Origin: Nostoc punctiforme PCC 73102
GTDB taxonomy: Bacteria; Cyanobacteriota; Cyanobacteriia; Cyanobacteriales; Nostocaceae
Length of the DNA: 32,000 nt
Direction of reading: 5' to 3'
NCBI RefSeq assembly: GCF_000020025.1
Contig: NC_010628.1
Location: forward strand, 3,870,001 to 3,902,000
Shown: one piece after another, positions 3,353 to 24,332 of the stretch
Numbering within the stretch: the first letter of the stretch is position 1
How the letters are laid out: every line of letters begins with the position of its first letter
Notes under the pieces: generated by a model
Database searches by the model: none
The model's input: only the letters and a program-made list of their open reading frames with translations
What the model was told of the DNA's origin: nothing
Translations under genes and position numbers: made by a program

Positions 3353-3421
3353 GTAGTCTACCAAGGTAACTTTGCTAAGTAAAACCTCTAATTGGTAAAA
3401 TAGCCAAAAACGGGGTGTAAC

Positions 3422-3862
3422 ATGGCAAAAAAGTACATTGTTGACTTGAATGAAGATGAAGTTTCCCAACTGCAATCGATAATTAAGAAAGGTAAGCATA
3501 AGGCAAGAACCATAAGCCGTGCAAACATTCTTTTGATGGCTTCCGAAGGAGAAACGGATCAAGCGATCGCTAGCATAGTTAGAGCGCATGTTGCAACAGT
3601 GCAACGAATACGAGAAAAATTTGTCATTGGAGGGTTAGATTTTGCTTTAAAGGATGAAGTTCATCCACCAAAACATAAAAAATTAGATGAAAAGCAAGAA
3701 GCATTTTTGATTGCAACAGCTTGTTCTAATCCGCCAGAAGGAAGAGTGCGTTGGACAATGCAATTATTAGCAGATCATTTAGTGAACGTTGGTATCATAG
3801 ATTCAATCTCAGATGAAACAGTACGTCAAACTTTAAAAAAAATGAAATTAAGCCTTGGTTGA
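3422..3862 (+). CDS. IS630 transposase orfA (HTH DNA-binding part)
   Basis: 146-aa ORF. It ends just after an A8 run (3835-3842). The -1 frame continues as [14 protein letters not shown], the canonical IS630 linker. Confidence 0.85.
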
Positions 3863-4338
3863 AAGAACAATGGTGTATTCCTGAAGTTAACGCAGAATAT
3901 GTTTTCCGAATGGAAGATGTGCTGGATTTATACAATGAGCCTTATGATCCTAAACGCCCTGTAGTCTGCTTTGATGAACGTCCATACCAATTAGTAGAAG
4001 AAGTAAGACTTCCTTTGCCACCACAGCCAGAGCAACCTGAACGTTATGATTTTGAGTATAAACGTAACGGGACAGTAAATTTATTCGCATGTTTTCAACC
4101 CTTGGCTGGATGGCGGCATATCGAAGTTACAGAACGTCGAACTAAAGCCGATTTTGCTAAACAAATGAAAAATTTAGTAGATGTTTCCTACCGAGATGCC
4201 GATGTTATTCGTTTAGTAGTTGATAACTTGAATATTCATACACCCAATGCATTATATGAAGTTTTTCCACCAGAAGAAGCACGTCGAATTATTCAAAAGT
4301 TAGAGTTTCACTATACTCCTAAACACGCTTCTTGGTGA
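3859..4338 (+). CDS. IS630 transposase, DDE catalytic part (orfB), expressed as an orfAB fusion by a -1 frameshift
   Basis: [21 protein letters not shown]...VVCFDE...VVDNLNIHT...[10 protein letters not shown]. It is terminated by a TGA created by the 56-nt insertion. Confidence 0.8.
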
Positions 4339-4589
4339 GCCAGTGCGTTGGGCGGGTTCCCCGACTTGAAGCAACTGGCGAACCCGAAGGGCTGAATCAG
4401 GTAGAAATCGAATTATCTGTTTTATCTCGCCAATGTTTAGAACGGCGTATTCCTAATGCAGAAACATTAACTTCTGAGATTGCCGCTTGGGAGAAAAAAC
4501 GTAATCAGCAAAAAGCTAGTGTTTATTGGGGTTTTCAAACCAAAGATGCTCGCCGAAAAATGGAGCGTTTATATCCAAATTTAACATAG
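4332..4589 (+). pseudogene. IS630 transposase C-terminal segment, out of frame because of the mini-insertion
   Basis: From 4392 it reads LNQVEIELSVLSRQCLERRIPNAETLTSEIAAWEKKRNQQ, which contains the last catalytic-region motif of the IS630 family. Confidence 0.7.
4336..4391. repeat. 56-nt GC-rich hairpin-forming mini-insertion inside the IS630 transposase gene
   Basis: It separates HYTPKHASW from LNQVEIELSVL, which are contiguous (HGSWLN) in IS630 transposases as I recall them. It contains the stem CGGGTTC(4353-4359)/GAACCCG(4380-4386). At 56 nt it shifts the frame and introduces a stop. Confidence 0.6.
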
Positions 4590-4613
4590 CAAAGTTAGCT
4601 TGGCAGACTACTA

Positions 4614-14061: not shown

Positions 14062-14397
14062 GTGGTAAAATTTACCAGGGTGGTAGCCGCCTATTTTAGC
14101 GGCTACCCTTTAACTAAAGAGCATTTTAGGGCATTTAAAGAAATTTACGGGGATGATGCAAATGGGGGAAGTCCGCATGTAGACAAAGGGGAGTCGGGAC
14201 GCTGGCGCTACTTTACGCGGGAGGATATTGCTAAACGAGGCGAAAACCTAGATATTACTTGGCTATAGGATGATAGTTTGCAGTCGGGGGATGATTTACC
14301 AGAGCCGGATCTAATTGCAGCTGCTATTATGACGAGATTACTTTCTAGCGCTCGCCCAGATGGAGGCGTTGACGCTACTAGGATGGCCACCATGTAG
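14062..14397 (+). pseudogene. type I restriction-modification methyltransferase (HsdM) C-terminal remnant
   Basis: ...GRWRYFTREDIAKRGENLDITWL*DDSLQSGDDLPEPDLIAAAIM matches the conserved HsdM C-terminus. There is an in-frame TAG at 14266-14268, and the N-terminal ~90% of the gene is absent. Confidence 0.65.
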
Positions 14398-14609
14398 CGA
14401 AAGAAAGATAGTTAGTATTAAATTAGGTAAACAAGCGCCTGGCTACAAAGTTGTTCAGAAAGCTCTCAATTGCTTCATCGCTGAAGTGACTCACCCAAAC
14501 ACGAGCATTTTTTGACTTCGCCACCAGCATCGCTTACTTTACTTTTCCCTACAGTAGTCTTTATGATATTTCTCGTTTAGTTTCAGTCAAAAATTTGACC
14601 AAAGCTTTT

Positions 14610-15200: not shown

Positions 15201-15296
15201 CTTTTGACACTCATATTAGGTTATACCACCCTTACATCTGACAAAAAATCCTTTTCGAGGCAAAGTTACACCTATGGAGGGGCGTGAGTAGCAACG

Positions 15297-15413
15297 GATA
15301 CTGTTGGCGAACTTAATAATTCACCGAAAAGTGTGAGAATTGCAGGGGAATTAAATCAGCAAGCACTTCATTAACAAAAAAGATTAAAACTCCCCTTTCC
15401 ATGTAATACATGG
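15297..15413. repeat. left terminal inverted repeat of the IS1182-family element
   Basis: GATACTGTTGGCGAACTTAATAATTCACCGAAAAGTGTGAGAATTGCAG... pairs with 18903-19019. Confidence 0.8.
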
Positions 15414-15442
15414 AAAAATTCGCCTAACCATGTATTACATGG
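15399..15442. promoter_or_regulatory. two CCATGTAWTACATGG palindromes in the left IR
   Basis: CCATGTAATACATGG (15399-15413; extends to the 21-bp palindrome TTTCCATGTAATACATGGAAA) and CCATGTATTACATGG (15428-15442). Confidence 0.5.
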
Positions 15443-15494
15443 AAAAGTACAGTAGAGATTTAGAAATGATTCGAGTTTCTAATAAAGGAAATTT

Positions 15495-17143
15495 TCAAGT
15501 GATAGCGATCGCTGCAAATCTTGATGTGCGTGTCTTGGCATGAGGCACACTTTGTAACCAAGCTACCATCCTTACCACATTAATCGCTGCTGCTGTGATT
15601 ATGTGCTGTAAATGGACTTTGGCTAAACCAGTATAACGAGCTTTTCGTAATCCGAATGCCCTAACTCCCTGAGAAATTGTCCCTTCAACTCCTGCCCTTG
15701 TGTCATAAATTTCTTTCCAAGAGTCAGTTGATTGTTGAATTCGCAGAGATTGAAGTAATTCATGCTCTTTTTTGAGCCGTAAAGTTAGTTTTCTTGGTTC
15801 AGAAGCCGACCGAGTACACAGAGAACGACTGGGGCAAAGTTGGCATGTTTTTCTAGGAAAACCAACACGAATTACCTGATTGCCCCATTTATCTTGATAA
15901 GGAGTCCACTTTTTGGTGCTTTTTTTGCCCATTGGACAGGTGACGCGCTTGGTGTTCCAATTCACCTTGAACTGGCTAATGTCGTAACCACCTGGCATTC
16001 TAGACTGCCAACTAACATTGGGACGCGCTGGCCCAACAACTGTGACCCCATACTTTTTTTGACTGGTAACTAGCAAATTAGCATCAACATAACCACCATC
16101 AACGATATGCAATGCTGGGAGTAATTTTTTAGATGCCAGAGACTTATGGATTGGTTCGGTCTGATCTACGTCGCTTATTTGTGCCTGAGTGGTATCAACA
16201 TTAGTAATTAGATGAACCTCATCAGCATCACAGGTTTCAGTAATATGGACTTTGTAGCCAGTCCAAGTGACACTGCGCTTGTTACCATAGCGAGCATCTT
16301 TATCATAGGGGAATCCATTCTTGTGCCAGTCGGCGGTAAATCGGTAGCAGCCCGTAAACGCAAAGAGTCATTCTCGACATAATATTGGTGAATCCAGGTC
16401 AGGCGCAGGATTTCCACTGCCGGAATCTGACGCAAGTAGGCAACATTGCTCGTCTCCCACAGGACTTTCAGTAACTGCATCCCATCATTACCGATGATTT
16501 CAGCATATTTGGTTCGGGCAGAAATTCCTTTGGGCAGGTGATATTCATCAAAAGCCCGACTATACCGCTCAAACCATTCAGGAGGAACCCACGAGCGTAA
16601 CCAGTCTGGGGCAACCGTAGCAATGGCATTAAGTGCAGCCCGAAGCGTTTCCCCATTCCCTTCCAGTCGATTCAGGGTACGAATTGCAGCCAAAACATGG
16701 GTTGAATCGGTTCGTTGTTTACCCCTATCTTTTAACCACCCACGCTCTTTGAATTGCTTTAATATCAGCTCTAAAAGTTGTTGTTCCGCCCCTCCTTTCA
16801 TCAGCCGACTTCTGAATTCACACAGCACAGTGAAGTCAAAGCCTGGGTCAGTCAACTCTAAACCTAAAGCATATTTCCAGTCGATGCGACTGCGAACCGC
16901 TTCGGCTGCTTGTCGGTCTGACAATCCTTCAATAAATTGCATCACACAAATTAATGCCAATCGCCAAGGAAAGATAGCAGGTTGACCATCAGTAGGAAAT
17001 AGAGTTTCAAAGTTGGAGTCACTGTACAATGTGCCTATTTCGTCCCGCATCGTTAGATATAAGTTGCCTTTGGGAAAAGCAGCCTGAGCAACTTGGCTAG
17101 TTGACAGAGGAACTGGGTTGATACGGCGCGGATGTAAAGACAT
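15495..17143 (-). pseudogene. IS1182-family transposase with one frameshift
   Basis: The N-terminus reads ...FPWRLALICVMQFIEGLSDRQAAEAVRSRIDWKYALGLEL (InsH_N-type). The frame changes near 16328-16336 (..ATDLPP|ADWHKNGFPYDKDARYGNKRSVTWTGYKVHITE). The C-terminus reads ARYTGLAKVHLQHIITAAAINVVRM. Confidence 0.85.
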
Positions 17144-17206
17144 GGCTCCCCTCCTGTCTACAAAACTTTTTGCTGCGGTAAATCAGCTTTATTAGCATAC
17201 CTTTTT

Positions 17207-17256
17207 CCGTGTGTTACGCGGTAAAATCAGTTAAAGTTAAACCATGTAATACGCGG
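17207..17256. promoter_or_regulatory. two degenerate copies of the palindrome in the tnp/RHH divergent promoter region
   Basis: CCGTGTGTTACGCGG (17207-17221) and CCATGTAATACGCGG (17242-17256). The second copy ends 11 nt upstream of the GTG of the RHH-like ORF. Confidence 0.45.
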
Positions 17257-17267
17257 AAATTTTAGTC

Positions 17268-17567
17268 GTGAAACGAGACATTCAGGGAAAGTTTACCCTC
17301 AAAAATGATGATTATCGTGAAGTTCGGACTTTGAGACTAACGGATGCTACCTGGAAAGCATTAGGCATTACCGCAGAATGTCATGGAATCACCAGGGCTG
17401 ATTTACTCGAACAGGTTGTCAGGTCTAATAATTTGGCATTTCCTCTTGCTCCCGTTCTAAAACAGTCTCAAACAAATCTTCATGTTGAACAACTCACAGT
17501 TTTAGCCGAACAGGTTTTAGCAGAGCTAAAGTTAGGCAAACAAGCTTCTAGTAGTCTGCCAAGCTAA
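17268..17567 (+). pseudogene. ribbon-helix-helix-like small protein gene, interrupted by IS630
   Basis: VRTLRLTDATWKALGITAECHGITRADLLEQVV has a strand-helix-helix pattern. Removing the IS630 plus TA continues the frame as ...KQASSYKSAQKALRRLIELVTTPTTSK*, with the stop at 18880-18882 (about 118 aa). Confidence 0.55.
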
Positions 17568-17572
17568 CTTTG

Positions 17573-17830
17573 CTATGTTAAATTTGGATATAAACGCTCC
17601 ATTTTTCGGCGAGCATCTTTGGTTTGAAAACCCCAATAAACACTAGCTTTTTGCTGATTACGTTTTTTCTCCCAAGCGGCAATCTCAGAAGTTAATGTTT
17701 CTGCATTAGGAATACGCCGTTCTAAACATTGGCGAGATAAAACAGATAATTCGATTTCTACCTGATTCAGCCCTTCGGGTTCGCCAGTTGCTTCAAGTCG
17801 GGGAACCCGCCCAACGCACTGGCTCACCAA
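17573..17830 (-). pseudogene. IS630 transposase C-terminal segment (copy 2), displaced by the same 56-nt insertion (17771-17826)
   Basis: Identical 85-aa product to 4332-4589. Confidence 0.7.
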
Positions 17831-18303
17831 GAAGCGTGTTTAGGAGTATAGTGAAACTCTAACTTTTGAATAATTCGACGTGCTTCTTCTGGTGGAAAAA
17901 CTTCATATAATGCATTGGGTGTATGAATATTCAAGTTATCAACTACTAAACGAATAACATCGGCATCTCGGTAGGAAACATCTACTAAATTTTTCATTTG
18001 TTTAGCAAAATCGGCTTTAGTTCGACGTTCTGTAACTTCGATATGCCGCCATCCAGCCAAGGGTTGAAAACATGCGAATAAATTTACTGTCCCGTTACGT
18101 TTATACTCAAAATCATAACGTTCAGGTTGCTCTGGCTGTGGTGGCAAAGGAAGTCTTACTTCTTCTACTAATTGGTATGGACGTTCATCAAAGCAGACTA
18201 CAGGGCGTTTAGGATCATAAGGCTCATTGTATAAATCCAGCACATCTTCCATTCGGAAAACATATTCTGCGTTAACTTCAGGAATACACCATTGTTCTTT
18301 CAA
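17824..18303 (-). CDS. IS630 transposase DDE part (copy 2)
   Basis: Identical 159-aa product to 3859-4338. Confidence 0.8.
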
Positions 18304-18740
18304 CCAAGGCTTAATTTCATTTTTTTTAAAGTTTGACGTACTGTTTCATCTGAGATTGAATCTATGATACCAACGTTCACTAAATGATCTGCTAATAATT
18401 GCATTGTCCAACGCACTCTTCCTTCTGGCGGATTAGAACAAGCTGTTGCAATCAAAAATGCTTCTTGCTTTTCATCTAATTTTTTATGTTTTGGTGGATG
18501 AACTTCATCCTTTAAAGCAAAATCTAACCCTCCAATGACAAATTTTTCTCGTATTCGTTGCACTGTTGCAACATGCGCTCTAACTATGCTAGCGATCGCT
18601 TGATCCGTTTCTCCTTCGGAAGCCATCAAAAGAATGTTTGCACGGCTTATGGTTCTTGCCTTATGCTTACCTTTCTTAATTATCGATTGCAGTTGGGAAA
18701 CTTCATCTTCATTCAAGTCAACAATGTACTTTTTTGCCAT
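18300..18740 (-). CDS. IS630 transposase orfA (copy 2)
   Basis: Identical 146-aa product to 3422-3862. Confidence 0.85.
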
Positions 18741-18874
18741 GTTACACCCCGTTTTTGGCTATTTTACCAATTAGAGGTTTTACTTAGCAAAGTTACCTTG
18801 GTAGACTACTAGCTATAAGTCTGCTCAGAAAGCTTTAAGACGATTAATCGAATTGGTGACTACACCAACAACCT

Positions 18875-18917
18875 CCAAGTAATATATGGACAACCGCCCT
18901 CCCCGTGTAATACATGG
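18875..18917. promoter_or_regulatory. two copies of the palindrome in the right IR
   Basis: CCAAGTAATATATGG (18875-18889, overlapping the reconstructed RHH stop codon) and CCGTGTAATACATGG (18903-18917). Confidence 0.45.
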
Positions 18918-19019
18918 AAAGTGTGGTTTGAATCTTTTTTATCACTGAAGTGCTTGCTGGTTTCATGCCTCTGCAATTCTCACACTTTTCGGTGAATTAT
19001 TAAGTTCGCCAACAGTATC
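18903..19019. repeat. right terminal inverted repeat of the IS1182-family element
   Basis: Reverse complement of 15297-15413. It is 49/49 identical at the tip, with conserved blocks CAGCAAGCACTTCA, AAAAAGATT and TTTCCATGTA.TACA further in. Confidence 0.8.
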
Positions 19020-19077
19020 AGCAACGGAACAGAAAACCGGGATAAGAAAAAAAATCTTGAAAAATCAGCCATTCAGC

Positions 19078-19091
19078 CATGTATATACATG
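19078..19091. promoter_or_regulatory. CATGTATATACATG palindrome upstream of the RHH paralog
   Basis: A 14-bp perfect palindrome 33 nt upstream of the ATG at 19124. It has the same half-site (CATGTA) as the IS1182-element motif. An extra half-site, CATGTA, lies at 19106-19111. Confidence 0.45.
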
Positions 19092-19123
19092 ATATAGTAA
19101 GACATCATGTATAACTTAGGACA

Positions 19124-19339
19124 ATGGATCAATATTCAGGCACTAGACAAAAATCTCAAAGACGACCCCGTACATCAGATGGTAAATTTGAAACTGATTA
19201 TGGAGATTCACCCAAACGGTTAAGGTCAATTCGCTTAACCGATGAAGCATGGGAGAAACTACTAGAAATAGCGGATAAAAATCAAGTAACCAGAAGTGAA
19301 GTCATAGAAATTTTCGCTCGCGGTGGCGAATTATATTAA
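19124..19339 (+). CDS. ribbon-helix-helix-like small protein (paralog of the 17268 gene)
   Basis: 71 aa. GKFETDYGDSPKRLRSIRLTDEAWEKLLEIADKNQVTRSEVIEIF aligns with GKFTLKNDDYREVRTLRLTDATWKALGITAECHGITRADLLEQV. Confidence 0.55.
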   Translation: MDQYSGTRQKSQRRPRTSDGKFETDYGDSPKRLRSIRLTDEAWEKLLEIADKNQVTRSEVIEIFARGGELY

Positions 19340-19500: not shown

Positions 19501-20397
19501 TTATTGTCCAAACGGTGGTATTTTCTTAAAAGCATGAAGCGCTACTTCTTGGGCACGAAGGGATGTGACTTTAGAGTAGCGAAGAGTAGTTTGAATTTTT
19601 TCATGCCCCATCAATGCACGAAGTTCCTCAACTCCCATGATTCCAACTCTCTGGGATGCAAAAGTATGTCTGAGTTGGTGAAAGCCAACACCTTCTAGTT
19701 CTGGAATGTTTTTAGCGGAGTTTACAAGTGTAGAGTAAGCTGTAGCATAGGAAAGACGAGATACTTGCTGATTATTCGGTTTTTGAGCCGTAAATAAAGC
19801 ATTTATCTGGGGATGTCGGTAGTATTTGATGTAATTATTCAAACAGAAGTCAGTATCTTCGTTGTAGAAACACCATCGTTGCTTGTTCCCCTTACCGATA
19901 ACTTGAAATGAACGAGCGGTAAAATCAATATCTGATAAATCCAAAGCTAGTATTTCTGCTATTCTGGCTCCACTGCTATGTAGCAAATGCACTAAAGCAT
20001 TAAGTCTGGCATCTTTTTTGATAGCTTGGTAAAGAATACTTAATTGATGTTGTGTCAGATATCGCACAACACTATCTGAATTATGCTCTCCTATCCGTGG
20101 ATTTGGTTTACGCCGTTTGAGATGAGAAATGGGGTTTGATTTGATATAACGGTACTCAACAGCAAAGTTAAATAAGGCTGTAATTACTGCTTGATGACGA
20201 TGATGAGTGATATATGATACGTTATTTAAATTATTGAGGTATTCAACCAAAATTTCTCGGTCAATAATTTCTAGCGACCAACTACCATAAAGTTGGAGCA
20301 AAGGCATTAAAGTTGATTCATAAGAGCGAATAGTAGAGTTAGCCAGTCCATGACGCTCTAAAAACTGAGTGACTAATGATGCTAAATTAACACTCAT
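19501..20397 (-). CDS. tyrosine recombinase / phage-integrase-family protein
   Basis: SIRSYESTL (SAM-like N-domain), GARIAEILAL (Arg), HQLRHTFAS, GHEKIQTTLRYSKV (catalytic Tyr). The ATG at 20397 (MSVNLASLV) is preferred; the ORF-track start at 20541 would overlap the divergent gene. Confidence 0.85.
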   Translation of the reverse strand: MSVNLASLVTQFLERHGLANSTIRSYESTLMPLLQLYGSWSLEIIDREILVEYLNNLNNVSYITHHRHQAVITALFNFAVEYRYIKSNPISHLKRRKPNPRIGEHNSDSVVRYLTQHQLSILYQAIKKDARLNALVHLLHSSGARIAEILALDLSDIDFTARSFQVIGKGNKQRWCFYNEDTDFCLNNYIKYYRHPQINALFTAQKPNNQQVSRLSYATAYSTLVNSAKNIPELEGVGFHQLRHTFASQRVGIMGVEELRALMGHEKIQTTLRYSKVTSLRAQEVALHAFKKIPPFGQ

Positions 20398-20478
20398 CTG
20401 ACAAGAGCCACTTAAATTATTTAACTGATGGACAAATATTAACTTAATATTAATAGGTAACGAAGTAGATATATTTTC

Positions 20479-20937
20479 ATGAATGTATCTGTGACGGATG
20501 CGGCTCCTAAGCCAGCAGAGACGTTGAGTTGTTACATTCAACGAGTCCGTAACTCTCTATCTCTAACTCAATTGGAGTTAAGTACAAAAGCCGGAATCCA
20601 TGTCCAGACTATTCGCAAAATTGAAGCAGGAGGAACATCTCGACTCAATCAAAAAGCTAAATCTGGTTTGGCTGCGGCCTTAGGTATCCCTCAAGAATAT
20701 TTAGATGCCGTTGTCAAAAAAGTATCACTTGAAGCTATAACTTCGCTCAAATTTTGCCCAAAATGTTGGACACCGGGGACAACTCTTGACCCCATGTGGA
20801 CTTCTTTACGGTCAAAATATTGCTTTGCGTGCGGGACGCAATTGCGAGATAGATGTTTGAGTTGTCACGAACCAATTGTGTCGCTCAAGTTTAAATTTTG
20901 TCCACATTGCGGCAAATCCTATAAGCAAACTGAATAA
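20479..20937 (+). CDS. XRE-family HTH protein fused to a double zinc ribbon
   Basis: LSLTQLELSTKAGIHVQTIRKIEAG (HTH_3-like), then CPKC...CFAC...CLSC...CPHC (four CxxC pairs). Confidence 0.75.
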   Translation: MNVSVTDAAPKPAETLSCYIQRVRNSLSLTQLELSTKAGIHVQTIRKIEAGGTSRLNQKAKSGLAAALGIPQEYLDAVVKKVSLEAITSLKFCPKCWTPGTTLDPMWTSLRSKYCFACGTQLRDRCLSCHEPIVSLKFKFCPHCGKSYKQTE

Positions 20938-22807
20938 TATTTAAGTCAAAAAATCAACCTAGATGCCAGTTGAATTTTTAAGTGGCGAACAAGAGAAAAG
21001 ATATGGATGTTACAACGGTGAACCATCTGCTGAACAACTAGCAAAGTATTTTTACTTGGATGATCTTGACAAAGAGCTGATTAAAAAACGACGAGGGAAT
21101 CATAACCGCTTGGGTTTGGGATTGCAGTTATGTACCGTCCGCTTTTTAGGGACTTTTTTAACTGACCCAACAGACGTTCCTTTACTGGTGGTTGATTATC
21201 TGACATCTCAATTGGGTCAGTTGGATGCAAGCTGCTTAGAACAATATAGAATTTCCGAAACCAAATGGGAGCATACAGCGTTAATCAAACAACGCTATGG
21301 CTACCAAGAATTTCACTCCCAACCTGAACATTGGAAACTGGTGCGTTGGCTTTACCAAAGGTCAACTTTGAGCGCGGAATCTCCCAGTATTTTATTTGAC
21401 CTAACTACAGCGCGGTTGGCAGAACGGAAAATACTGTTACCGGGAGTGAGTGTTTTAGCACGGTTAGTGGCATCAGTACGTGAAAGAGCAGCTAACCGTC
21501 TTTTTAAGGTTTTGTCTTCACTCCCCAACAAAAAGCAAATTGAAATACTCGAAAAACTGTTACTCATAAAAGAGTTAGCACGTTACTCAACTCTCGACCG
21601 TTTGCGTCACTCTCCGACTCGCGTCAATGCCAAATCTATGTTAGTGGCGATTAATCGTTTGTCGGAAATACGGTCGTTTGGGATTTCTGACATTGATTTA
21701 TCTAGAATCCCACCGACACGAGTGAATTTTTAGCACGTCTTGGCGCAGCTTCTCGGTCGGCGGCGATTGCCCGGATGCCTGATAATAAGAGAATTGCCAC
21801 CTTACTGGCATTTACTTATTTACTGGAATATACGGCAACAGATGATGTAATTGATTTATTCGATTTACTTGTTAAAGGGTTGTTATCGAAATCTAAGCGG
21901 GAGGGTGAACAACAACGTCTGCGAACGCTCAAAGATTTAGATGCCGCCGCACTCAAACTAGCGGAGGTGGTCGAAGTACTTATAGACAACGAGTGCGACG
22001 ATATTAATGTCAGAATTGAAGCTTTTACCAGAGTCAGTCAAGAACAATTGAGTCAAGCTGTAGCTAAAGTCAAATCATTGGCCCGTCCAGAAGATGATGA
22101 GTATTATGATTTGCTACTGTCTCGCTGGCGTGGAATCCGTATTTTCCTCCCTTCACTGCTTTCTCAAATTGAGTTTTCATCTTCCGAGAATGCAGCACAT
22201 ATTTTAGATGCACTCTTATTTTTACGTTCTATTGAGGGTCAAAATCGACCCGACATGAGTGCTGCACCACTCAAAGTAATTACCAAAGGGTGGACACGGT
22301 ATTGCATTAATTCCAATGGCACAATTGACCGTAAAGCTTATACGTTCTGCGTTTTACAATCTTTAAGGTCGGCGTTGCGTCGTCGGGATGTGTTTGTGGC
22401 CAAAAGTCAGCGTTACTGTGACCCCCGTGCCAAACTTCTTAGTGATGAAGCATGGTCAGCACAACGGGCAGGTATATGTCGGACTTTAGATTTCCAACCG
22501 ACTTTTGATTCATCACTCTCTATCTTAAAACAAGAATTGGATGAGGCTTACCGTCGCACTGCTGCTAACTTCGAGAACAATACTGCGGTACGCATTGAAC
22601 ACAAAGATGGAAAAGATAATTTGGTATTGACTCCAATAGATAAACTGGTTGACCCGCCCAGTTTGATAACGCTTAAAAGGCAAGTGACAGCCATGTTGCC
22701 AAAAGTTGATCTGCCGGAGGTAATGCTTGATAATTAATGCCAGGACTGGATTTACCAAAGAATTTACCCATTTGAGTCAGTCCAACAGTCGGGTTGATGA
22801 TTTGCAC

Positions 22808-24159
22808 TTCAAGGGGCGACAATGGTTGCTAAACCGAGCCAGATAAAGGTTTAGAAGGCACAGACCCTTTGAAAAAATGGGCTATTCTGGAGTGCTTATT
22901 GAGAATGAAATATGCAGGTGTCACAGACCCGCTTCTAGAGATCTATTTTATGGTAAAAAAGAACGGTCTCGTAAATTGAACAAGACCGTCATCATAATGT
23001 TGCCCTCATTCTATCAAAAGTTTTTAGAGAAATACCTGAGTCAATCACAGTTAATAACTTTGAAGATGTTGGTGTGGTTGTTACAAAATCAAAAACAAGT
23101 CAGATTAGAAAGGCTGGCTGCAACACTACCTTTACCCATACAGCAAAATAGTCGGAGGCGACACTTACAAAGATTCCTAACGCTGAATGCTTTGAGTGTA
23201 GTGTTACTGTGGTTTCCCATAATTGAAGAGATACTTGGTAAGCAAATCAAAGCTGGCTCACAAGTAATTATTGCACTATATAGAACACAATGGAAAGAAA
23301 ATAATGTGCTAATGGTAAGTGTAATTTACCAAAAAAGAGCATGGCCAATATATTGGTGCTTGTTAGAAAAAGATGGTTGCAGTAACTTCCAAGAGCAACA
23401 AAAAGTTTTACGCCCAGTGATTCGCTTGTTAAAAAATTACAAAATAGTGATTATTGGCGATAGAGAGTTTCATAGTATAGAATTAGCGGAGTGGTTACAC
23501 AGGAAGAATCTCAGCTTTGTATTCCGTCAAAAAAAGGACACAACCTTCCGAGAGAAAAGACAAAAATTTCAGCCTTGAAGCAGCATTGATATTTATCCAG
23601 GAATCCGCCAGTTTTATTTGGGTATCAATTTGACTCAAAAACGAGGGTTTGGCAGATTTAATTTAGCAGTATATTGGAAAAGAAAATATCGCAATAAACA
23701 GGAACCAGAACCTTGGTATTTATTAACTAATCTGCCTGATTTAGAAACTGCTGCTCAAATCTACGGAGCGCGTTTCGGCATTGAAGCTATGTTCCGTGAT
23801 TGTAAAACAGGTGGTTATAATCTCGAAGGTTCTAAAGCTAATCCTGATAGACTTGTGCGTTTAATTTTCTTAATTGCTTTAGCCATGACAAGTGCTTGGT
23901 TACACGGACAAAGAACTAAATTGCAAAAACAAGAATCTTATATTTGTCGCACTCAAGAAAAAAGTCGAACTTCTAAACGACATAGTAATTTTTGGATAGG
24001 TTTATATGGTCAAAATTGGATAGTCGCTTGGAATGAATGTCAAGCATGGGTTGAGGAACTGGTCGCTTCCATTCGCAATAAGCAGAGCTTTTATCTCAGG
24101 GGTTTAAGGGCTATGAAGCTTATACAGAAAGCACTTTAGCTCCATTGTCGCCCCTTGAA
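22808..24159 (+). mobile_element. IS4-family insertion sequence A (1352 bp) inside tnpA
   Basis: Perfect 18-bp IRs TTCAAGGGGCGACAATGG (22808-22825; reverse complement at 24142-24159). 9-bp TSD GATTTGCAC (22799-22807, 24160-24168). Confidence 0.85.
22997..24139 (+). pseudogene. IS4-family transposase with an in-frame TGA and loss of the first catalytic Asp
   Basis: It aligns along its length with the 382-aa protein of element B. TGA at 23576-23578. IALYRTQW stands where B has LAIDRTNW, a D to Y change at the first DDE residue. Confidence 0.8.
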
Positions 24160-24332
24160 GATTTGCACATTAGTATCTGCGCGGTGTTGCTGGCAGAAGC
24201 TTGCAATATTGGTTTGGAACCACTGATACGTCCAGAATTACCTGCATTAACTCGTGGACGATTATCTTGGGTGCAGCAAAATTATATCCGTCAAGAAACT
24301 CTCATCCGTGCCAATGCGCGATTGGTCGATAC

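Follow-up and report, generated by a model that had tools for sequence, protein, structure and literature searches.

A two-gene IS1182-type element in Nostoc punctiforme with paired palindromes and a probable ribbon-helix-helix regulator

Why does an insertion sequence (IS) from a family of simple organisation carry a second gene and a set of repeated palindromes? The question is raised by the element at 15297-19019 in a 32,000-nt stretch of Nostoc punctiforme PCC 73102 (contig NC_010628.1, positions 3,870,001 to 3,902,000; hereafter the window). IS1182 elements, as described in ISfinder, are shorter than 2 kb and have a single transposase open reading frame (ORF) and short inverted repeats (IRs). 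The window element is larger and contains, beside its transposase gene (tnp), a small gene and several copies of one 15-bp palindrome. From sequence comparison we think it likely that the element represents a two-gene cyanobacterial IS1182 lineage in which a ribbon-helix-helix (RHH) repressor, the product of the small gene, acts at paired operators and exerts negative, copy-number-dependent control. The window copy itself is inactivated, its transposase being frameshifted and its second gene split by an IS630 insertion, and the lineage to which it belongs is widespread and active elsewhere.

This answer is carried by the association of the small gene with the palindromes, which form an inseparable module in strict co-occurrence. 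Relatives of the window element were fetched as loci labelled L001 and so on. In 80 such loci, 384 sites (at most two mismatches) lie within 2.8 kb of the small genes and none in the remaining 505 kb. The sites follow the consensus TTTCCrtGTAWTACayGGAAA, whose GTAWTAC core hardly varies; from one site to the next, distances of 28-29, 33-36 and 44 bp are preferred, and pairs are usually 28-36 bp apart. A different picture is given by six IS1182 relatives that lack the small gene, found with tblastn of the intact transposase against plasmids at 51-60% identity: ISAcma45, ISAcma46, an element of Acaryochloris marina S15, and copies from Rhizobium, Streptomyces and Deinococcus. All six have the tip ACTGTTGGCGAA with at most two mismatches and none contains a single palindrome, not even in a tnp leader of equal length; four were fetched with both tips and measure about 1.75-1.83 kb. 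Since these relatives keep the tip and have no palindromes, the tip seems to go with the transposase, and the palindromes with the small protein.

The element in the window

The features of the element are the following, with positions in the window.

15290-15296, no strand: left target-site duplication, AGCAACG (relatives show duplications of 6-7 bp)
15297-15413, plus strand: left IR, 117 nt, perfect over 15297-15345, with the tip GATACTGTTGGCGAA, the presumed transposase site
15399-15413: palindrome L1, CCATGTAATACATGG, 103-117 nt from the left tip
15428-15442: palindrome L2, CCATGTATTACATGG, 29 nt from L1, start to start
15495-17143, minus strand: IS1182-family transposase pseudogene with a single frame switch at 16307-16310
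17144-17267: divergent intergenic region of 124 bp between tnp and the small gene, conserved in the half proximal to the small gene and variable in the half proximal to tnp
17207-17221: decayed operator-like site, CCGTGTGTTACGCGG, 4 mismatches
17242-17256: candidate operator site, CCATGTAATACGCGG, ending 11 nt upstream of the GTG start of the small gene at 17268
17268-17550, plus strand: 5′ part of the small, putatively RHH-family gene, from the GTG start, codons 1-94 plus one base
17551-18809, minus strand: secondary IS630 insertion of 1259 bp, with TA doubled at 17549-50 / 18810-11 and a broken transposase frame
18812-18882, plus strand: 3′ part of the small gene, with the stop codon TAA (18880-18882) inside palindrome R2
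18875-18889: palindrome R2, CCAAGTAATATATGG, overlapping the stop codon of the small gene
18903-18917: palindrome R1, CCGTGTAATACATGG, 103-117 nt from the right tip, the mirror of L1
18903-19019, minus strand: right IR, 117 nt
19020-19026, no strand: right target-site duplication, AGCAACG

The two IR arms are 89% complementary over their 117 nt and perfect over the outermost 49 nt, and together with the flanking direct repeat they mark 15297-19019 as a single transposed unit. Without the IS630 and one TA this unit measures 2462 bp, exactly the length of the intact relative L014. Of the two minus-strand ORFs, 16208-17143 covers the N-terminal and 15495-16112 the C-terminal half of the profile for IS1182 transposases, NF033551 (1e-39 and 7e-40; 136 and 137 bits); PF05598 (DUF772) and PF13751 (DDE_Tnp_1_6) are matched as well. 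The frame switch was located by comparison with an intact orthologue; intact orthologues reach 347.5 and 329.9 bits on NF033551, for which the cut-off is 270, the higher score belonging to the 568-aa transposase of L014. By its transposase, its 7-bp duplication and its IRs, with a tip as in named IS1182 elements, the element thus falls within the family, from whose simple organisation it departs in size, in IR length and in having two conserved genes. A previous sequence-only reading of this DNA had described the 49-bp perfect and about 117-bp extended IRs, the AGCAACG duplication, the reconstructed length and a frameshifted IS1182-type transposase on the minus strand, and all of this agrees with what we find.

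It had also counted six palindromes of the type CCATGTAWTACATGG, of which five are good. This 15-mer has exactly five matches with at most two mismatches in the window (starting at 15399, 15428, 17242, 18875 and 18903), all of them within the element, where even at three mismatches only 0.71 matches per window would be expected by chance and five were reached in none of 100 shuffles. The sixth, at 17207-17221, is a decayed copy, and is orthologous to better sites with 1-3 mismatches in L014, L013 and L001. Similarity between the two IRs ends at nt 117, and the second palindrome is still kept beyond this point within a spacer that differs between the two ends. Within the intergenic region, it is the conserved half that bears the sites.

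The nested IS630 has 35-nt IRs and matches the IS630 hidden Markov model. A second copy at 3353-4611, in the opposite orientation, is 100% identical over the 1259 bp and shares the same broken reading frame; because the two window copies are identical, this IS630 must have moved recently. A further segment, 22800-24170, is 77-82% identical to IS4-family transposase regions on plasmids of Nostoc, Trichormus and Chroococcidiopsis. The window is an IS-rich region of Nostocales-like character.

The small gene and its protein

The small ORF divergent from tnp is present as had been proposed, although it is split by the IS630 and its reconstructed product has 117 rather than the anticipated 118 residues. 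Its 5′ part spans an N-terminal beta-alpha-alpha domain, a linker and the start of a C-terminal domain. The reconstructed protein has 198 homologues (E ≤ 0.01), with identities of 45-92% among the 120 matches listed, and every named source is a cyanobacterium. The family comprises 428 clusters at 50% identity among 1.8 billion proteins, and a scan of one genome per species returned 188 relatives, many of them on multi-copy or high-coverage contigs of ~2.4 kb. Family members are 117-157 aa long. Their N-terminal region is near-invariant (KRDIQGKFTLKNDDYRQVRSLRLTDxTWKALGIAAECLGITRADLLE), the middle is a variable linker, and the C-terminal region is again conserved (LxxLAxxVLxELKLGKQASSYKxxQKALxRLIEL). 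Between class-A copies the ratio of nonsynonymous to synonymous substitutions (dN/dS) of the small gene is 0.13-0.37. Judged from these comparisons, the ORF is a real, conserved gene under purifying selection and restricted to cyanobacteria.

An AlphaFold model of the protein, built from an alignment of 50 sequences, has strands at residues 4-9 and 20-25, helices at 26-39 and 43-53, then a disordered linker and a helical hairpin formed by residues 73-86 and 94-111. Residues 20-53 are modelled with RHH topology at a local confidence (predicted local distance difference test, pLDDT) of 78-87. When the model was compared with known structures by Foldseek, the best matches among small targets, none of them significant, were RHH proteins: Rv0298 (TM score 0.65 on the target), MazE-mt10, VapB, Arc, AtaR and CdbA. 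Matches to the Pfam family RHH_4 stay below threshold (best 23.5 bits, cut-off 25); they come from 4 of 50 close members and from 8 of 10 divergent ones, in these eight on the same residues (best E-value 5.8e-5). The window protein has no sequence match in the PDB, and in the databases the family is named hypothetical except for one UniRef entry, 'Ribbon-helix-helix domain-containing protein'. Taken with the model, the small protein is probably an RHH protein. The sequence-only reading had named both the absence of an RHH fold and a lack of conservation as grounds for giving up its proposal; the numerous homologues, the low dN/dS, the predicted beta-alpha-alpha arrangement and the consistent, if sub-threshold, RHH_4 matches all point the other way.

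A 71-aa paralogue of the N-terminal domain only is encoded close to the element at 19124-19339 (35% identity, E = 3e-8; RHH_1 at 1.2e-3). A related palindrome, CATGTATATACATG, lies 33 nt upstream of it (together 19078-19339), and a tyrosine recombinase gene at 19501-20541 adjoins it on the opposite strand. Possibly the paralogue is a further regulator of mobile elements belonging to this family.

Relatives and other carriers of the module

In tblastn searches the small gene was found beside an IS1182 transposase in many genera and in three gene orders (A to C): divergent (the window, L013, L014, L039 and others), convergent (L015-L021 and L029, Pleurocapsales) and tandem (L032, L037, L047, L051, L053 and L061). 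Both genes always lie between tips of the form GAyACyGTTGGCGAA...TTCGCCAACrGTrTC, in elements of 2.32-2.52 kb. More than 20 elements have the small gene inside their tips, more than 15 independent insertions of relatives show clean duplications of 6-7 bp, and several contigs of ~2.4 kb run from one tip to the other, with read coverage being high for two of these. The gene is also retained in the deletion derivatives L003, L022 and L052.

The palindromes accompany the small gene in all three gene orders, and also in the copies of Nostoc sp. PCC 7120 (pCC7120alpha, at about 268.4-270.8 kb, and pCC7120epsilon; proteins of the family in this strain include WP_010999803 and WP_044520416) and Geminocystis. 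In an alignment of eight class-A ends, left and right, taken from five elements, the tip GATACTGTTGGCGAA was invariant, as it is kept in the RHH-less relatives of other phyla, and only this tip and two palindromes were common to all; the spacers differ and contain insertions and deletions. Every carrier type has a site or a pair directly upstream of the small gene. IS1182-type elements have, in addition, a pair upstream of tnp at whichever end tnp starts, which in orders B and C is the end opposite the small gene and more than 1.7 kb away from it; the IS1634 type, too, has sites upstream of tnp. In order A and in the IS1634-type element described below, further pairs are placed mirror-symmetrically from both tips, away from any gene start.

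Several expectations of the sequence-only reading can be judged from this collection. The small gene and the palindromes do co-occur among the copies, and the palindromes are conserved in them; besides these and the tip, no conserved block is common to the left and the right end. A copy of the element that ends near 17262 and has no small ORF, which would have indicated two nested elements, was not found; in dozens of elements, belonging to many genera, the IRs enclose the ORF. What had been called a passenger gene is for this reason better described as an integral accessory gene.

Some shortened derivatives are of interest in their own right. Two resemble miniature inverted-repeat transposable elements (MITEs) of 614-643 bp and hold the small gene alone between IS1182-type tips (L033:7817-8459, with a 7-bp duplication, and L049:387-1000). 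Two others, of 122 and 142 bp, consist of tips only and have 7-bp duplications and no palindromes (L018:6076-6197 and L048:11088-11229). In the window, 14345-14531 is the relic right end of a tandem-order copy bearing the small gene, recognisable by a fragment of the C-terminal domain, KLGKQAPGYKVVQKALNCFI, followed by a degenerate tip, TTCGCCACCAGCATC.

The flanks of the insertions have a feature of their own. A GGGG about 15 nt outside one tip occurs in many IS1182-type insertions, RHH-less relatives of other phyla included; examples are 15279-15296 in the window and the left flanks of L003, L014, L022, L042, L019, L029, L095 and L101. Class-A elements share the motif GGGGyNTGAGTAGCAAys, whose last 7 nt are the duplication, and in L022, L019, L087, L095 and L096 the flanks are inverted rather than direct. 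This may reflect a preference for a GGGG-containing or hairpin target, or recombination between inverted copies. The box GGGG-N7-AGCAAYS does not behave as an independent repeat in the window or the fetched loci.

The module is not confined to IS1182. An IS1634-type element of Nostoc carneum NIES-2107 (L065:7756-10484; 2729 bp, 141-nt IRs, tip ACTGTACGTTCGC) encodes a homologue of the small protein and, 37 nt further on, a transposase of the IS1634 family (NF033559, 4e-86). Its two IRs contain the same palindromes, which also occur upstream of the small gene and within it. The element is present in at least 13 identical copies with differing flanks on the chromosome and plasmid3, from which we conclude that it was recently active, while IS1634 relatives at 36% identity have neither the small gene nor the sites. 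An exchange of whole ends between the IS1182-type and the IS1634-type element was considered and abandoned, as 159 of 1000 shuffles reach the score observed when their IRs are compared beyond the palindromes.

The third carrier is a TnsB/TnsC-type transposon of 4.0-5.4 kb, with its longest copy (~5.4 kb) at L092:7837-13208 and further copies in L005, L023, L026, L036, L038 and L044. It has the ends TGTGACTTGAATG...ACA (TGT...ACA), with 5-bp duplications in L005 and L044, and codes for a transposase of 908 aa (rve plus Mu-transpos_C), weakly TnsA-like at its N-terminus, and a 563-aa AAA+ protein similar to TniB/TnsC; neither tniQ nor cas12k was seen in it. The small gene lies convergently at one end and has four sites, one pair upstream and one pair in the linker. 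A relative with 65-77% identity that has no small gene has no sites either. The sequence-only reading had described the arrangement of regulator and sites as one not known to it for IS1182; these two carriers show that it reaches beyond this family.

Finally, divergent members of the family outside transposons (L106:2256-2674 and L105:1-522), one on a Rep_1 plasmid-like contig and one upstream of an RND (resistance-nodulation-division) efflux operon, keep TGTAWTACA upstream of the gene, inside it and at its end. In-gene sites generally fall into the part coding for the variable linker (for example L005:5172-5219; proteins P0079, P0085, P0095, P0103 and P0108). There the palindromes encode P[SC][NI]T[WR], as PSNTW, PCITR, PSITR or PCNTR. 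Since this is exactly the variation that the degeneracy of the palindrome permits, the constraint acts on the DNA.

In a neighbour-joining tree of the small proteins (129 columns, no bootstrap) the sequences cluster by carrier type, and the clades associated with IS1634 and TnsB/TnsC nest among those associated with IS1182. Such a topology would fit a small number of transfers of the cassette from one transposon family to another, with a stable association after each. More than one carrier type is present in the genomes of N. carneum, Fischerella muscicola, Anabaena minutissima and Nostoc sp. MG11, and the window combines a class-A copy, the tandem-type relic and the 71-aa paralogue. The beta-strand motif of the protein and the core of the operator are invariant across clades.

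Proposed regulation, alternatives and known systems

We propose that a canonical backbone of ~1.8 kb, consisting of the tip, a DDE transposase and a 7-bp duplication, gained a regulatory module of ~0.6 kb made up of the 117-157-aa protein and its cognate 15-bp sites, (TTT)CCrtGTAWTACayGG(AAA). The protein would bind DNA through its N-terminal RHH domain, which the variable linker connects to the C-terminal helical hairpin; through this hairpin RHH dimers might form higher oligomers, as in Mnt, and occupy paired sites cooperatively. Binding directly upstream of the small gene would result in autoregulation and binding upstream of tnp in repression, and in the window copy both sets of sites would be one and the same, in the divergent 124-bp region. 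The further pairs, ~100-145 bp inside both tips, could serve to modulate the use of the ends or to block read-through. The net effect would be negative, dependent on copy number and exerted in trans, on expression and/or end use. Negative control of this kind is the most likely outcome, because the characterised analogues (Arc in IS605; CvkR and Arc in CRISPR-associated transposons, CAST) are repressors, because RHH-less relatives and tip-only MITEs move without the sites, and because one carrier has sites at one end only. Control of tnp is implied by gene orders B and C, where the sites precede tnp at the end opposite the small gene.

A number of observations weigh against this proposal. The overall pLDDT of the protein model is only 72, Foldseek returned nothing significant with it (best E-value 0.9), and neither the window protein nor the family has an above-threshold match in Pfam. 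Scans for consensus promoters and terminators in the window element and in the presumably active L032 found nothing in the relevant intergenic regions, so that the overlap between sites and promoters is assumed. The sites are dispensable in cis for mobilisation, because tip-only MITEs with 7-bp duplications carry none, and a role at both ends is not universal, because the TnsB/TnsC-type transposon has sites at one end only. The sites at the ends might even be a passive by-product of the upstream, in-gene and 3′ sites of a cassette that happens to lie beside an end. The identical copies in N. carneum, at least 13 in number, also tell us that the module is no bar to bursts of transposition.

The proposal can be widened to the other carriers, which we do only tentatively. 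In the wider form, a portable regulator-operator cassette would have been captured by at least three unrelated cyanobacterial transposon lineages, and cross-binding between them would create a network in trans that senses how many of these transposons are present in total and throttles them jointly. Its operators would, on the same somewhat doubtful footing, have been implanted in the promoters and subterminal regions of IS1182-, IS1634- and TnsB/TnsC-type carriers. Cross-binding is plausible because the recognition strand and the GTAWTAC core are essentially invariant and the lineages reside together. If such a network exists, the MITE-like L033 and L049 with the small gene alone would be mobile donors of repressor.

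Could the protein instead be a positive architectural factor? It would then bind and bend the subterminal sites, bridge the ends and help to assemble the transpososome, much like RHH relaxosome proteins at the transfer origin (oriT) or host factors at IS ends, and promoter control would be secondary. This role would account for the mirror-symmetric placing of the site pairs at either end of elements from two unrelated IS families (103-146 nt from the tip in the window element, 92-141 nt in the IS1634-type one), and for the pair beyond the 3′ end of tnp, which in order A and the IS1634-type element adjoins no gene start. The predicted C-terminal hairpin could act as the bridge, and carriers of the module have multiplied to at least 13 identical copies. 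We nevertheless consider such a role unlikely, since relatives that lack the small gene but have the same tip occur widely in different phyla and contain no sites, tip-only MITEs with 7-bp duplications have none, the TnsB/TnsC-type transposon has them at one end only, and the characterised RHH proteins encoded by transposons are repressors (bioRxiv 10.64898/2026.09.24.754181).

We would also call it improbable that the small gene is a self-contained passenger cassette whose protein regulates nothing but itself and has no effect on the host transposon. The sites at the ends would then be by-products of the position of the cassette and of homogenisation between the IRs, and in fact the gene always adjoins one element end, the non-transposon members share the layout of upstream, in-gene and 3′ sites, and the left-end pair in the window lies partly within the extended 117-nt IR. 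This is difficult to reconcile with the pair upstream of tnp in orders B and C, at the opposite end and more than 1.7 kb from the small gene, and with the second palindrome, kept beyond nt 117 although its spacer context differs. In addition, each clade of the small protein is stably tied to one transposon type, and the RHH-less relatives show no sites in an equally long tnp leader.

The sequence-only reading had suggested that ends and promoter are both recognised by one DNA-binding protein, which would be either the RHH protein or the transposase through its N-terminus. The co-occurrence of gene and sites supports the general idea and indicates the RHH protein. That the transposase reads the palindromes is very improbable: many transposases do bind subterminal repeats and the sites lie within the extended IRs, but sites are absent from the six relatives that share the tip and have transposases 51-60% identical, whereas the same sites occur with the unrelated IS1634 and TnsB/TnsC transposases whenever the small gene is present, and at non-transposon members of the family. 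The tips of the IS1182-type and IS1634-type IRs are, moreover, no more alike than chance. We reject this reading, and likewise that of an antitoxin or centromere-binding protein with palindrome arrays for addiction or partition, which has hardly any probability left: RHH antitoxins are among the best structural neighbours and one relic copy lies near parA/parB, but the elements of 2.3-2.5 kb hold two genes only and no toxin or ParA gene, and the parA/parB neighbour is outside the tips of a deletion derivative. Chance nesting of two unrelated elements, for which the unusual size alone would speak, is refuted, to a degree close to certainty, by more than 20 independent elements that have target duplications and enclose the small gene between their tips.

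Should the binding proposed here be correct, the elements would offer a simple and testable model of copy-number-dependent self-restraint in DDE-type IS elements, with possible cross-family regulation among transposons that reside together. It would also explain the unusually long IRs and the sizes of these cyanobacterial elements, which are presently annotated only as 'IS1182/IS1634 family transposase + hypothetical protein'. The compact operator/repressor pair, being native to model strains like Nostoc sp. PCC 7120, might in that case serve as a genetic tool. The self-limitation of IS elements has mostly been explained by features of the transposase, and dedicated accessory repressors were shown only recently, in IS605 and CAST; here a single small protein and its operator constitute an exchangeable module in three transposon superfamilies. 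In the literature (ISfinder was outside this search) we found no description of an RHH regulator module in IS1182 or IS1634, none of this module among cyanobacterial examples, none of one operator/regulator pair shared across transposon superfamilies, and none of regulator sites as part of extended IRs. Transposon-encoded RHH repressors as such are already known from IS605 and CAST, and it is the occurrence in IS1182 and IS1634 and the sharing between superfamilies that are new as far as we could find.

Compared with its nearest named relatives, ISAcma45 and ISAcma46 of Acaryochloris marina, the window element is alike in its family transposase (51% identical to the intact orthologue), its tip and its short duplications. 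These canonical IS1182 elements have a single gene and short IRs in ~1.8 kb and lack both palindromes and an RHH gene, in contrast to the 2462 bp, the 117-nt IRs, the second conserved gene and the six operator-like sites of the window element. As regulator, the small protein resembles Arc of the IS605 family, an RHH repressor shown to bind and repress the intergenic promoter of its transposon (bioRxiv 10.64898/2026.09.24.754181). In both cases a small gene, coding in the window family for a probable RHH protein, lies within the bounds of the transposon, often divergent from the transposon genes, and here it is conserved together with the transposon. IS605 differs in using the chemistry of an HUH TnpA and TnpB, and no sites at the ends are reported there; the window family is set apart, by description, in being longer and in having a conserved C-terminal domain with a predicted hairpin.

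Closer in host range are CvkR, Arc_1 and Arc_2, the regulators of cyanobacterial type V-K CAST, of which Arc_1 and Arc_2 are RHH proteins; they were acquired independently, measure 53-72 aa, are encoded upstream of cas12k and are specific to CAST (PMC9938897). Like them, the proteins considered here are small putative repressors encoded by cyanobacterial transposons, a role we ascribe by analogy. By description they are different in having 117-157 aa, in occurring in three carrier types, of which the TnsB/TnsC-type is devoid of cas12k, and in sharing one common operator consensus.

The domain arrangement is reminiscent of Mnt of phage P22, which joins an N-terminal RHH domain to a C-terminal helical oligomerisation domain and binds cooperatively to a bipartite operator. 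Mnt is a regulator of phage immunity, and the likeness lies in the predicted hairpin, from which oligomerisation of the window family would follow. IS elements with passenger genes are known as 'transporter IS', and regulators that bind ends or promoter and damp transposition are known in IS1 (InsA), IS911 (OrfA) and Tn5 (its inhibitor), where they derive from the transposase. The putative regulator of the window element, in contrast, is unrelated to the transposase, has sites of its own apart from the tip and is common to several transposon families.

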